IMG/VR virus record: IMGVR_UViG_2834631226_000004
Location: 12,363 to 76,362 of that record
DNA from: a virus
Taxonomy: Duplodnaviria > Caudoviricetes
Strand: one strand, 5' to 3'
DNA: 64,000 nt
Part shown: in pieces, positions 73-63,044 of the stretch
Numbering within the stretch: the first letter of the stretch is position 1
Layout of the letters: every line of letters begins with the position of its first letter
Translations under genes and position numbers: made by a program
Notes under the pieces: generated by a model
Told to the model about the DNA's origin: nothing
The model's input: only the letters and a program-made list of their open reading frames with translations
Database searches by the model: none

Positions 73-804
73 TCACGCAGCCCTCCCCGCCATAAGCGCA
101 TCAAACGTCGCCAGGAATTCCAACTCCGCTTCCTCCGGTGACCAGTACCGCATCTTCACGCCCAGCTCTTTGCCGGCGTACCGCGCATGCCACGGCATTT
201 CACGCAGGTTGACCAGCTCGTCCGCAATGATTCGGTTGTCAGCGTCATGCACTTCGCGCGGCAGCTCCCGGTCCAACTGAAATCGCGCCGCGATAGCCAG
301 CCAGTTGTCCTGCTCAATCGCCCGGTAGTTGATAAGGTACGGCTTGAGCGGTCGCGGAATGTCCACGCAGTATGCTTCAGGGGCATCGTGGAGAAGGCCA
401 GCCAAAGCCACCTCCGGCGCGTGCTTGGCTGCAAGATGACGGGCAATCAGGACAGAATGTTCGGCGACGCTGTAGAACTTGATGCAGTGACCAGCGTATC
501 GGCATTGCAGGCCGAGCGAATGCGCGATGTCTTCGATGTGGACTTCGTGCGGTCTCGGAGACATCGGCCAGTATTTGCGGCCGGTGAACGTTTGCATGAA
601 ATCGCCGGTGCGGGGTGGCTCGGCTGGTGTGTTGCGGGTTAGGCCGATGTATTGTCCGTTGTCCTGGGACTGAGGACGGTTGTCGTTGGCGGCAACTGGG
701 GTACACCTTGTGCGCTCTTCGCGCAGCGCCACTGCAGCCTTAAAGGTGGCGATCTTTTTATCTGCGATCTCTCTAGCGTCTATCACTGCAGCGTATGGCA
801 TCAA
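73..804 (-). CDS. HD-domain phosphohydrolase (YfbR/YfdR-like 5'-deoxynucleotidase)
   Basis: EDIAHSL..RYAGH..YSVAEHS..LLHDAPEAY..DIPRPLK motifs. Confidence 0.85.
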   Translation of the reverse strand: MMPYAAVIDAREIADKKIATFKAAVALREERTRCTPVAANDNRPQSQDNGQYIGLTRNTPAEPPRTGDFMQTFTGRKYWPMSPRPHEVHIEDIAHSLGLQCRYAGHCIKFYSVAEHSVLIARHLAAKHAPEVALAGLLHDAPEAYCVDIPRPLKPYLINYRAIEQDNWLAIAARFQLDRELPREVHDADNRIIADELVNLREMPWHARYAGKELGVKMRYWSPEEAELEFLATFDALMAGRAA

Positions 805-1229
805 AACGCCTTCCCACCAGCCATAAGCCGGTTTTCGATTTTGTGGTCAGGGCGGTTGGCGTTGAATGCCATCTTCTCGACGACGGCGCCGCCGAGGTCA
901 TAGCCGAGGAATGCCGCCAGATCGCCGATCCGGATCATGGCGTCGGCCAGCTCCACCTCAGCCATAGGTCGGTGCGGCAGCTTGTCGTCCATCAGCACTT
1001 TACCGGGCCTGGACTTGCGATAGCCCTCCATCGCTTCGCTGATCTCGCTGTGAATCAGGCAAAGCATCTCAGGCACGTTGCGGTCCAGCGCCCTGCCTGT
1101 GGCGAGGTCAGTGTACCAGCCTGCTCTACGGCTTGCTGCGTGGCAGTCGGCTGCAAACAGGTTGATCGCTGCGGCGTGGTGGAATTCCACCTCCGCAGCG
1201 ATTTTTAAAGTCACGACGTTGTCACTCAT
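801..1229 (-). CDS. MazG-like NTP pyrophosphohydrolase
   Basis: LIHSEISEAMEG..EVELADAMIRI; ATG 1229 preceded by AGGAGA. Confidence 0.8.
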   Translation of the reverse strand: MSDNVVTLKIAAEVEFHHAAAINLFAADCHAASRRAGWYTDLATGRALDRNVPEMLCLIHSEISEAMEGYRKSRPGKVLMDDKLPHRPMAEVELADAMIRIGDLAAFLGYDLGGAVVEKMAFNANRPDHKIENRLMAGGKAF

Positions 1230-1436
1230 TCTTGTCTCCTCAGTGGCGGTGGTTGACCGCCAGTTGGTGGCTGGCGGCTGGTTGGGGATTGCTGGGGAAG
1301 TCGCTGTATAAATGCTAAAAAAAACCCGAATTTGCCGGTTGTTTCGGTGGTTATCCCCCATTGGCAATTGACCTTCGGCCCGTAGGGAGTCCTTATTGCC
1401 ATTGTGGTGCCAGCGAATCTTTCACTGGAGCACCAA

Positions 1437-1586
1437 ATGAAGACCTTCCTTAAGTTCAGGCACGGTAAAACCGAAGGTGAAGCGAACAACACTCTCGGAA
1501 TGTTGCTGCTAACGATCATTGCCGTAACCTACAGGCTTGCACCGTTCATCGCGCTGGGCGCTGGCGGATACTGGCATGTTCGCTAG
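1437..1586 (+). CDS. Small membrane protein
   Basis: GGAG RBS, hydrophobic C-terminal half, opposite strand to neighbours. Confidence 0.5.
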   Translation: MKTFLKFRHGKTEGEANNTLGMLLLTIIAVTYRLAPFIALGAGGYWHVR

Positions 1587-1590
1587 GGCG

Positions 1591-2826
1591 TCACGCCACT
1601 GCCCTCGCCGACTCATTATCATTGGCGGCATCCATCATCGCAACGCGAACGCGCGAAACTTCGCCATATTCCTTGTGGTAGCTGATCGACTGCATAGACC
1701 GGCCAGACAGGAAGCCCGAGCCAAAGTGCCACGCATCCTGCGGCGTCGGCGTCTGGTGAGATTCCGAAATCACCCCGCCGCCCTCAGAAGCGAACTTGCT
1801 CGAGTGGTGGATGTGAAAGCCATGGACGAAGCGGTGGCGAGTTGCGCCCCAGTCTTCGGCACGGCGGTGTGCCATGATGCTCGCCATGTCCTTGAGCTTG
1901 ACCGTGTGGCCATGCGTGGCGCCGATCATCACCTTGCCGAAACGGAACCAGAAGAACAGCGACGGGTCTACGTCGACAGTCACTCTCGGCTCATTGCGAT
2001 ACCAGGCGAGCAGGAAGTATGCGACTGCAACAGACGCGTGCTCATCGTGATTGCCTGGCAAGATGCGGACGGTGACGTGCCCATGCCGCTTAAGGCTGGC
2101 GTCGATCGATCGAACGACAAGCCGGCATGCGGTCATCAGCACCTTTTGATACCTGCCGTCGACCTGCAGAACGTTGCCCGAGCGTGCAGTCTTGTTCTCG
2201 TTGTTGTCAGAGTGGAGCAAGTCACCGCCACCCAAGACAATCGCATTGGCGGATGGCGGAGTGCGCGCAATCAGGTCTTCAATTGCTGAGCCAATGACAT
2301 GCTCCGCAATCTTTAAATCCCAATTCGTGTCTGTCTCGCGATGCCATGAGAAGAGTCCGATATGCCAGTCGGCCAATGGCGTCAGCGTCAGCAGATCGTC
2401 ATAGACGTGCGTCGGCGCGGCGATAGGTTCGGCGGGCTGAACATCACGGAATGCCTCTTTGAGGACGGCGGCGATATCGACTGGTGAGTGTTCCACCGCC
2501 GTCTTCTGCCACTGCTGGATAACGCGTCCCTCAGCATCGACGAGCGCGGACACACCTTTGACGACGTGACCGGTCGGGACTTCGAAACGCTCGCCGCGCT
2601 CCTGCGTCTGCTGGATATATGTGCCGCTCGGCGTGTTGCTGATACGGCTTATGCGAAAGCCAGGAAGGACAGGCTCTGTGCCCAGAAGGCCAGCTTCGGC
2701 AGCGCGTTTGATGCTCTCGGCAAGAGCGGACTTGCCGATGCCAAGCGCGGCGGCAGCCTTCACGAGCGTGCCGTGCTCTCTGTAGGCGTCGGCTCTTCGA
2801 CGTAGTTCTTCTATGGGTAGAGGCAT
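1591..2826 (-). CDS. Calcineurin-like metallophosphoesterase with N-terminal HTH
   Basis: ADWHIG, GGGDLLH, PGNHD, THGH, GFHIHH motifs. Confidence 0.85.
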   Translation of the reverse strand: MPLPIEELRRRADAYREHGTLVKAAAALGIGKSALAESIKRAAEAGLLGTEPVLPGFRISRISNTPSGTYIQQTQERGERFEVPTGHVVKGVSALVDAEGRVIQQWQKTAVEHSPVDIAAVLKEAFRDVQPAEPIAAPTHVYDDLLTLTPLADWHIGLFSWHRETDTNWDLKIAEHVIGSAIEDLIARTPPSANAIVLGGGDLLHSDNNENKTARSGNVLQVDGRYQKVLMTACRLVVRSIDASLKRHGHVTVRILPGNHDEHASVAVAYFLLAWYRNEPRVTVDVDPSLFFWFRFGKVMIGATHGHTVKLKDMASIMAHRRAEDWGATRHRFVHGFHIHHSSKFASEGGGVISESHQTPTPQDAWHFGSGFLSGRSMQSISYHKEYGEVSRVRVAMMDAANDNESARAVA

Positions 2827-61670: not shown

Positions 61671-61673
61671 GAC

Positions 61674-62042
61674 GTGGCGAAGGAAAAACTTAAACCCTGC
61701 CCGTTCTGTGGCTCACATCCAGTACACGGCCTGATGAAGGTAGAGTATTGCCAACTTCACGGGGAACCGTTCCAGCGCGCTCGTGTCAATTGTCCTCACG
61801 GTCACGCCGAGATTATCTGCTCTTCTTTGGCGGAGGCAAAGGAAAAGTGGAATAGGCGTCCGGCATACCCCGGTGAAACGGGCGTGGCTTTGAATAAGGC
61901 CGTGGCCTTTATCGAAAGCCTCACCGACGACCCTCTTCTCATGGGGGAAGATATCGAGATGACACTTGATGATGTCCAAAATCATGCGCGGATAGAACTG
62001 GCCAGCCTCCGAACGCTAATGAAGCAGGAGGGCGGCGAATGA
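61674..62042 (+). CDS. Lar-like Zn-finger protein
   Basis: LKPCPFCGS..WNRR. Confidence 0.65.
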   Translation: MAKEKLKPCPFCGSHPVHGLMKVEYCQLHGEPFQRARVNCPHGHAEIICSSLAEAKEKWNRRPAYPGETGVALNKAVAFIESLTDDPLLMGEDIEMTLDDVQNHARIELASLRTLMKQEGGE

Positions 62043-62329
62043 TCCTTGACGACGATTTTGAGCGCAATGTGGAAGCAGAGCTTGCGCGCACCGCCGAATG
62101 GAACCGTGAAACGCTGGAGGCTGAAATCACGCGCCTTCGCCAACTCCTATCCGAAGCAGAGAAGCGCGAGAGGGAGGCAAGGGCGAAGGCGCTGGAGGAG
62201 GCTGCGCAAGTCGCCATGGACTGGAAGTGCTCGCTCCGCCCAGGGAACATTCAACGCCTATATGGCCATCAGGATGCAGCCCGAGATATCGCAGCGAAGA
62301 TCAGCGCCCTGCAATCGGAGGAGCGGTGA
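62039..62329 (+). CDS. Hypothetical coiled-coil protein
   Basis: ALEEAAQ..IAAKISAL. Confidence 0.65.
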   Translation: MILDDDFERNVEAELARTAEWNRETLEAEITRLRQLLSEAEKREREARAKALEEAAQVAMDWKCSLRPGNIQRLYGHQDAARDIAAKISALQSEER

Positions 62330-62682
62330 TGGTCGGATGCAAAGAACTAGTCGCGCGCGTTTCTGAGGTCACTGGAACGCCGCATGAAACCGTGACCGTC
62401 ATTGACAGGCTATTAGCTGAGGCTGGCCTGCGCACGCGGTCTCGACGTGGTCGTGGCCAAACGGAGATGACTCCTTTGGACGCATCCCGACTTCTTTATG
62501 CGACTATCGTTAGCACTCGCGCCGTCGACGCGGTTCGCGTGGTAGAGGAAGGAGGCGAGGCAATATCTGATGTCGTGCAGTCGGTATCTCTCGGTCTGGA
62601 TATAACTATCTCTTTCAAGCGATCGCCGTGCTGCACACAGGCGATATTGATAAAATCTCCGAACCTCATGGGTGAGCCATGA
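62329..62682 (+). CDS. Hypothetical DNA-binding-like protein
   Basis: Coupled ORF. Confidence 0.55.
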   Translation: MVGCKELVARVSEVTGTPHETVTVIDRLLAEAGLRTRSRRGRGQTEMTPLDASRLLYATIVSTRAVDAVRVVEEGGEAISDVVQSVSLGLDITISFKRSPCCTQAILIKSPNLMGEP

Positions 62683-63044
62683 CCAGAACCGCCGATAACG
62701 ACAACGAGCCGCCGGACGCAGTCCTGGAAACACTGTTGACGCCGGAGCAGGTGGCGGCACGAATAACGGCGTCCACCGGAGTTTTGGTTACGGCAAGAAC
62801 CGTGTGGGAGAAGTCGAAACGAATCGGGGTGTCGCTAAAGATCGGCAGATCTCCGATGATATCATCGCGCGATATACCTGCGCTTCTCCAAGAGGAAAAC
62901 AGGAAATGGCAACGCCCTTTAAACGAGGAAAAGTCTACTACCACTACTACACCGATGCTAAAGGTAAGCAGCGGAAACGAAGCACTGGCCTTACTTCAAA
63001 AAAGCAGGCGCAAGAGGAAGCTGACGCCTTCATCGCACGGATAA
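62679..63044 (+). CDS. Excisionase-like HTH protein (3' part overlaps integrase)
   Basis: LLTPEQVAARI..TARTVW..KIGR. Confidence 0.6.
   Translation: MTRTADNDNEPPDAVLETLLTPEQVAARITASTGVLVTARTVWEKSKRIGVSLKIGRSPMISSRDIPALLQEENRKWQRPLNEEKSTTTTTPMLKVSSGNEALALLQKSRRKRKLTPSSHG

Follow-up and report, generated by a model that had tools for sequence, protein, structure and literature searches.

Why should one short peptide, identical to the opening residues of a bacterial degradation tag, recur in one protein after another of a phage? The question is raised by a 64,000-nucleotide stretch of DNA (hereafter the window; G+C 58%), which corresponds to bases 12363-76362 of the 76,362-base provirus record IMGVR_UViG_2834631226_000004, and whose non-structural proteins carry the tetrapeptide ANDN or close variants of it. 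A first-pass annotation made from the letters of this DNA had listed 23 [A/S/D]NDN motifs in 19 open reading frames (ORFs), and had compared them to the alphaproteobacterial ssrA tag encoded by transfer-messenger RNA (tmRNA). In this work, comparative analyses of the window, its relatives and their hosts strongly supported mimicry of the ssrA tag, and we consider it rather probable that ANDN constitutes a short linear motif copying the invariant head of the host tag, which the adaptor SspB would bind, tethering the carrier protein to ClpXP.

Six-frame translation of the window returned 27 NDN tripeptides, 23 of which are of the [A/S/D]NDN type and lie inside 19 ORFs, in exact agreement with the annotated list; the protein tails quoted there were also exact. 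Three others fall in shadow frames (window 20509, 16566, 34193), and the last, an ENDN found at residue 529 of the primase, occupies a nearly invariant position of the AAA_25 fold rather than being a linear motif, so that the motif reported for the primase stands for the PANDN of its linker, but not for this further NDN. A self-trained gene call over the whole 76-kilobase (kb) phage, yielding 98 genes and 21,613 residues, allowed the comparison with shuffled proteins that had been proposed as a check: NDN was found 24 times versus 1.6 expected, and none of 2000 within-protein shuffles contained more than 7; for ANDN, 18 copies were found versus 0.19 expected. They are the top-enriched tripeptide and tetrapeptide, respectively. 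Permutations of NDN remained flat (NND 2, DNN 4, DND 5, NDD 0), and 18 of the 24 AND were followed by N. Apart from these, the sole enriched word was ANLYG, a trivial case, as all its copies come from one pentapeptide-repeat protein. Furthermore, the codons of the motif vary synonymously (AAC/AAT, GAC/GAT and all four Ala codons), and therefore selection acts on the peptide, the signal residing in the protein rather than in the DNA.

The placement of the motifs is equally skewed. No copy was found in the structural and lysis block (7,087 residues; window 7.2-30.1 kb, encoding endolysin, tail fibres, tape measure, major head protein, protease, portal and terminase), versus 23 in the rest (p = 1e-4), where replication, recombination, methylation and regulatory genes are located along with the integrase. 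Most motifs (20/23) lie within 60 residues of a protein terminus (p = 2e-6), and the sites fall outside Pfam domains; overall, about a fifth of the phage proteins bear the motif, with [A/P]-A-N-D-N-x-P as extended consensus. Ala-Ala ends were observed in 15 of 98 phage proteins versus 1.4 expected from composition; in the host, 6.2% of ORFs already end in this way, 5x the compositional expectation, and thus the excess of the phage over the host baseline is modest, whereas its link to ANDN is strong: 9 of 19 carriers end in -AA compared with 2 of 53 non-structural non-carriers (Fisher 4e-5), including 6 of the 9 in which ANDN lies over 25 residues away from that end. The earlier statement that many carriers end in -AA was hence borne out as an association, although it applies to only about half of them. 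Two further carriers were noted upstream of the window, namely a 365-residue ORF (G000:C1:290-1387, +) with HANDNF at residue 41, and a 250-residue ORF (G000:C1:11172-11924, -) with PANDN at residue 49 and the end ..EDAA.

No close relative of the window was found among GenBank phages. Its lineage is that of Rhizobium phage 16-3, with a primase sharing 49% identity with its RHph_X2_26 counterpart and 40% with the N-terminal part of the one in 16-3, and its nearest relatives are prophages of Agrobacterium pusense (primase 97% identical), A. burrii, A. tumefaciens and A. rosae; therefore, the likely host of this temperate phage is Agrobacterium or a close relative. Consequently, the relevant reference is the Agrobacterium tag, and not the Caulobacter tag chosen in the first-pass annotation. 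Using ARAGORN, the tmRNA tags were identified as ANDNNAKEYALAA in A. pusense, ANDNKAQGYALAA in Brucella, ANDNYAEARLAA in both Mesorhizobium and Consotaella, and ANDNEALAIAA in Sphingomonas. All five native tags start with ANDN, end in AA preceded by L or I, and measure 11-13 residues. SspB is encoded in the five host genomes, at no more than about 3 kb from ssrA in the four Rhizobiales, and its structure has been solved (2NYS, 2QAS, 2QAZ); no SspB gene was found in the whole phage record. In A. pusense, sspB lies about 260 bases from the tmRNA gene (L154 and L160; C10:320126-321210).

The likeness extends beyond the head. When 153 related loci were scanned for the distance between ANDN and the C-terminus, a sharp peak was obtained at 11-14 residues, comprising 132 distinct tails, of which 94 end in AA, contributed by at least 25 families otherwise unrelated in sequence. 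Three methylases of the window, all on the (-) strand, have tails with the conserved N-terminal residues of the host tag as head and a terminal Ala-Ala: the C5 methylase (38256..39974) carries a complete C-terminal mimic, ANDNRETPIANAA, of 13 residues as in the host tag (38259..38297); the MTS methylase (40391..41209) ends in DNDNVSPVQADLFGRAA (40394..40444), with NDN in 19/19 homologs; and the N6/N4 methylase (41209..42513) in the 14-residue tail ANDNRPADLFSEAA (41212..41253), with NDN in 14/15 homologs. These tails are not products of true tmRNA tagging, since they are encoded in the genes, in frame before the stop codon and with varied codons. The resemblance to the alphaproteobacterial tag noticed at the outset thus withstood comparison with the likely host, and it is not superficial, because head and tail co-vary within proteins and across genomes.

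On these grounds, the following course of events can be proposed. The lineage would have inserted or appended ANDN in the disordered ends and linkers of non-structural, mostly DNA-handling proteins; the host adaptor SspB would bind the head and then tether the carrier to ClpXP, with the terminal Ala-Ala serving as the ClpX-binding end of the tag. NDN was reportedly described as the determinant for SspB-alpha by Lessner and by Chien, both in 2007. Three architectures could be envisaged, namely complete 11-14-residue mimics acting as built-in ssrA tags, an internal head combined with a distant C-terminal -AA, and single or tandem heads without -AA. As an outcome, early proteins would have short lifetimes under the control of the host. 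Binding to SspB, degradation by ClpXP and a benefit for the phage are all plausible from the sequence comparisons. In E. coli, the head and tail of the tag can be separated into a module for SspB and one for ClpX: a head on its own is bound tightly by SspB but not degraded, combining it with a weakened end leads to SspB-dependent degradation, and tandem heads are degraded in an SspB-dependent manner without a ClpX motif (PMC8512704). By analogy, if transferred to SspB-alpha, these rules could frame the carriers that do not fit the complete tag, such as those without -AA or with weak ends; tandem heads are present here in the helicase and DUF669 tails.

Several observations weigh against the proposal that SspB and ClpXP read the motif. 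Pro is present at +2 in 40% and at -1 in 32% of 496 contexts, neither of which native tags show; a hydrophobic residue precedes the terminal AA in only 27 of 90 distinct complete mimic tails, and the window methylases themselves read NAA, RAA and EAA; and -AA is absent from 10 of the 19 carriers. Further, one relative (G006), complete and similar to Rhizobiales prophages, has no motif at all; as complete relatives lack it, the motif is dispensable. Finally, the portal of phage 16-3 has a complete mimic, ANDNQEDEAEAA, and its tape measure carries the motif, both being proteins that must persist. The restriction to non-structural proteins suggested by the first-pass annotation accordingly holds for the structural block of the window, but not for phage 16-3.

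Other explanations for ANDN were weighed against degradation through SspB. Of all of them, a word acting at the DNA level, or a compositional artefact of disordered tails rich in Ala, Asn and Asp, has a practically negligible probability: despite the occurrence of the motifs in low-complexity tails, their codons vary synonymously, the carriers always read the word in their coding frame, its permutations show no enrichment, shuffling never exceeded 7 copies against 24 observed, and the orthologous tails of motif-free relatives, of similar composition, lack it. Both versions were refuted by the codon, permutation and shuffle results. A processing role, with ANDN as the recognition or cleavage site at which the trypsin-like serine protease of the phage trims tails and linkers, is very improbable as well. 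This non-structural Trypsin_2 protein (3551..4300, -), which corresponds to p036 of phage 16-3, was encoded in 8/8 whole records with the motif and in 0/3 without it in a first sample, and linkers and tails are typical processing locations; nevertheless, it is encoded in only 13 of 24 relatives at least 90% complete, and at least 10 motif-rich records of that completeness lack it, e.g., G034 (20 sites), G035 and G043 (15 each).

Docking on another hub, be it a host protein or a phage replication or recombination protein, with the ssrA likeness as partial convergence, is unlikely; in its favour, nearly all carriers handle DNA, the same tails hold clamp-type QxDLF and DDVPF resembling the tip of the single-stranded DNA-binding protein (SSB), and the Pro at +2 is missing from native tags. 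Moreover, a 92-residue ORF just upstream of the window (G000:C1:11921-12199, -), without Pfam or PHROG family and predicted to fold as a small SH3-like barrel (predicted local distance difference test, pLDDT, 78; no significant match in PDB), was found in 25 of 28 motif-rich versus 0 of 4 motif-free records. Such docking, however, would leave the association with -AA, the peak at 11-14 residues and the genome-level co-variation of head and tail unexplained; the ORF is missing from three complete motif-rich phages, two of which (G035 and G043, 95-100% complete, 15 sites each) have neither it nor the protease; and no gene near the primase was found to discriminate motif-rich from motif-poor loci, these loci being too short to be conclusive. 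A reader encoded by the phage was the serious alternative; as candidates, the protease and the 92-residue ORF had displayed a perfect match in 11 genomes that failed in 50 and 32 records. Since phage-encoded readers fail on distribution, and none is required by the motif-rich genomes, the reader is likely a host factor. A host factor would also be involved in titration, in which bulk early ANDN heads saturate SspB and queue ClpXP, so that tmRNA-tagged or other substrates of the host, or proteins of the phage, are spared and the carriers need not decay. The 16-23 copies per genome, the head without -AA in about half of the carriers, and the tight binding of the head to SspB without degradation in E. 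coli (PMC8512704) would agree with a decoy; yet titration needs neither motifs held at orthologous positions in some 20 proteins, nor an association with -AA, nor tails of tag length, and one abundant multi-copy protein would suffice, which leaves it with a low probability. Degradation through SspB and ClpXP is the most likely reading.

Comparison across genomes indicates that the motif is a trait of the phage lineage, missing in some members. In each of seven motif-rich phages, ANDN was the top dispersed tetrapeptide (11-16 proteins each), and -AA was present on 11-22% of ORFs; conversely, AA ends amounted to 0/103 in G008, 2/90 in G009 and 7/89 in G006, which together with G055 are lineage members without the motif. 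No replacement motif was found in G008, G009 or G006. The Rhizobiales members of the lineage carry the motif densely, while in Prim-Pol elements of non-alphaproteobacterial hosts it is absent as a trait (2 ANDN in 377 kb), and it is also absent from distant elements in Sphingomonas, Acidocella, Methylobacterium and others; given that it is lacking despite an ANDN-type host tag, such a tag is not sufficient. A difference in the host was considered for the motif-poor relatives and discarded, as Consotaella, Mesorhizobium and Sphingomonas all have an ANDN tag and SspB; the whole Consotaella element contains 6 ANDN.

The comparison with the host genome, also proposed in the first-pass annotation, pointed in the same direction. 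No ANDN was found in 320 kb of the A. pusense chromosome (98,500 residues), and the ANDN coding pattern occurred 43 times in its 5.3-Mb genome: 20 in a 54-kb prophage, 1 in ssrA and 22 elsewhere, versus 10 for a reversed control. About 9-12 of those 22 are in frame, roughly 9 being expected, and none has a phage context, i.e., sites outside the prophage and ssrA are at chance level. The enrichment is therefore a phage trait and not a habit of the host; avoidance of ANDN by the host was also contemplated, and it is unsupported by in-frame sites that match chance.

Regarding the origin of the motif, homolog alignments depict it as a conserved island amid gap-rich, fast-changing tails, and in some tails its position is not homologous, suggesting that it was gained repeatedly. 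The orthologs of motif-free relatives retain their tails, and their helicase has a D[DE]IPF tip without ANDN. The clearest example is the DNA repair exonuclease (1591..2826), whose counterpart in G009 ends in ..VRVALLDA, precisely where the window protein continues with the 11-residue tail ANDNESARAVA (1594..1626, -), ending in VA, as if a tag had been appended. Phage 16-3 carries about 20 motifs, among them those of its exonuclease and methylase tails, and its Xis has AANDN at the N-terminus.

Some tails combine ANDN with additional motifs. Between ANDN and the final AA, Q-x-[DS]-L-F was observed in 16/16 MTS and 11/13 N6 methylase tails (QLSLF in some), the window proteins having QADLF and ADLF, respectively, 4-5 residues from the C-terminus. 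We take QL[SD]LF to be the consensus of beta-clamp-binding motifs, here located in methylase tails, and the phage encodes a three-domain DnaN clamp (48934..49989); with QxDLF at the terminus and a clamp gene in the same genome, the tails present the pattern of putative clamp-binding motifs, and a clamp-tethered phage methylase, if true, would be unusual. Similarly, the SF2 (superfamily 2) helicase ends, after two ANDN-type heads, in DDVPF (44757-44790), conserved in 54/64 homologs including those of motif-free relatives, and likened here to the acidic tip of bacterial SSB (DDDIPF). Judged by sequence, these tails are arrays of copied docking motifs. Whether they also make up a combinatorial code is a more tentative matter, to which we assign a small chance: the ssrA head would address SspB, Ala-Ala ClpX, and QxDLF the sliding clamp, while DDVPF would resemble the SSB tip, with partner engagement deciding the survival of the protein. 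For example, if the QxDLF near its end held a methylase on the clamp, the Ala-Ala degron would be masked, and SspB would hand the free enzyme to ClpXP. If true, this would amount to a proteome-wide use-it-or-lose-it control, by which lytic proteins that leak out in lysogens may also be cleared.

With respect to known systems, the phage copies share with the native tag, read by SspB and ClpXP, the first four encoded residues, the Ala-Ala-COOH end and, in the complete mimics, the length of 11-14 residues. They differ from it in that the native tag is added by trans-translation, whereas the copies are encoded in the genes, often with an internal or N-terminal head, favour Pro at +2, have mostly non-hydrophobic residues before AA, and share tails with other docking motifs. 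In E. coli, Flynn et al. reportedly described in 2004 that the SspB site of RseA is well separated from its C-terminal ..VAA degron. This bipartite logic of an internal adaptor site plus a terminal Ala-Ala resembles that of the carriers with a distant ANDN, 6/9 of which end in -AA; however, the RseA site does not resemble the ssrA head and cleavage is needed to expose its degron, whereas the phage proteins have a literal copy of the tag head and an encoded end. Phage lambda O and the Mu transposase and repressor are ClpXP substrates with individual, idiosyncratic degrons. Pseudomonas phage pf16 encodes its own SspB (PMC5587285). All of them likewise tie early proteins to ClpXP or interfere with the SspB pathway, although lambda and Mu are not known to use a proteome-wide copy of the head, and pf16 has an SspB gene whereas this phage has none.

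The motif would be of a known kind, that of encoded ssrA-like degrons, and its nearest published precedent is the integration-dependent immunity of mycobacteriophages, where integrase and repressor bear C-terminal ssrA-like -LAA tags (PMC9262239), i.e., proteins of temperate phages that likewise entrust their stability to host proteases. In that system the tags are limited to two proteins and to a copy of the ClpX end, and integration removes the tag, as opposed to about 19 proteins with an adaptor-binding head in this phage, whose integrase (62804..64000) and repressor (58673..59386) have neither NDN nor an -AA end. The SspBCDE system of PMC9345386 is unrelated. In the literature searched, no published description of this motif, or of phage mimicry of ssrA or SspB substrates, was found. 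If true, short-linear-motif mimicry that reaches about a fifth of the proteins of a phage and at least 25 unrelated families would be of a scale undescribed for bacteria in the papers searched, and would provide a simple, testable rule for the lifetime of early proteins in temperate alphaproteobacterial phages, including the classical 16-3. It would also offer natural variants of SspB-dependent degrons usable in Agrobacterium and Sinorhizobium, together with an example in which to study tethering by an adaptor in combination with further docking motifs.

The remaining carriers are distributed along the window as follows, with sites on the (-) strand unless indicated. Near its beginning, the HD-type deoxynucleoside monophosphate phosphatase (73..804) has AANDN at residue 39 (679..690), in an N-terminal extension, and ends in ..GRAA, and the ORF 4793..5275 has TANDN at its N-terminus (4799..4810, +). 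Beyond the structural block, p31190 (phrog_36072) carries AANDN 13 residues before the C-terminus (31223..31234) and PANDN at residue 51 (31976..31987); NDN is aligned in 41/47 and 43/47 homologs, respectively, and kept even in those less than 40% identical. A single-sequence fold prediction of p31190 reached a pLDDT of 45, too low for use. The VRR-NUC-like protein (32137..32643) has ADNDN 7 residues from the C-terminus (32152..32163), and the HNH endonuclease (32938..33366; domain 33-81) has AANDN in its C-terminal tail (32965..32976). In the primase (36074..38317), PANDN (37226..37237) is located in the linker between Prim-Pol (23-195) and AAA_25 (370-562), and the protein ends in ..VRAA.

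Among the replication and regulatory proteins, Gp157 (42861..43442; domain 38-191) has PANDN at residue 25 (43359..43370); the SF2 helicase (44757..46565) has a tandem ADNDN..PANDN in its C-terminal tail (44808..44843), upstream of DDVPF, with NDN within 12 residues in 58/68 homologs; and the sigma factor (47053..47661; region 2 from residue 52) has AANDN at residue 36 (47545..47556). VANDN lies at residue 222 (50221..50232) of p50062, a 277-residue protein whose PHROG match ends near 218 and whose end is ..PWAA, while the DUF669 SSB-like protein (50956..51612; domain 48-154) displays a tandem AANDN..ASNDN in its C-terminal tail (51010..51048). PSNDN is found at residue 140 of p53217 (53697..53708), ending in ..DAAA, and the 133-residue p54400, ending in ..RVAA, has AANDN at residue 104 (54481..54492) and PANDN at residue 68 (54589..54600). 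On the opposite strand, the ORF 60814..61026 has AANDN 7 residues from the C-terminus (61000..61011, +), and the xis-like ORF 62679..63044 has ADNDN at its N-terminus (62694..62705, +), with DNDN kept in the G011 homolog. Gene support is weak for two of these carriers, 4793..5275 and 60814..61026; the xis-like ORF is conserved, motif included.

Additional features of the window concern genes other than the carriers. A tRNA-Met (CAT) gene at 30888-30964 (-) separates the terminase region from the early genes. A protein with Schlafen/AlbA_2 and HATPase_c_4 domains is encoded at 34489-35919 (-), in a compositionally foreign, low-GC stretch at 32-36 kb (51.5% vs 58%); only 1 of the 64 related loci has it, and it may represent a moron or defence gene. 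Finally, the pentapeptide-repeat protein, made of A[ND]L[YR][GS] units with 10 NLYG repeats, is encoded at 60021-60764 (+), in the immunity and integration region.

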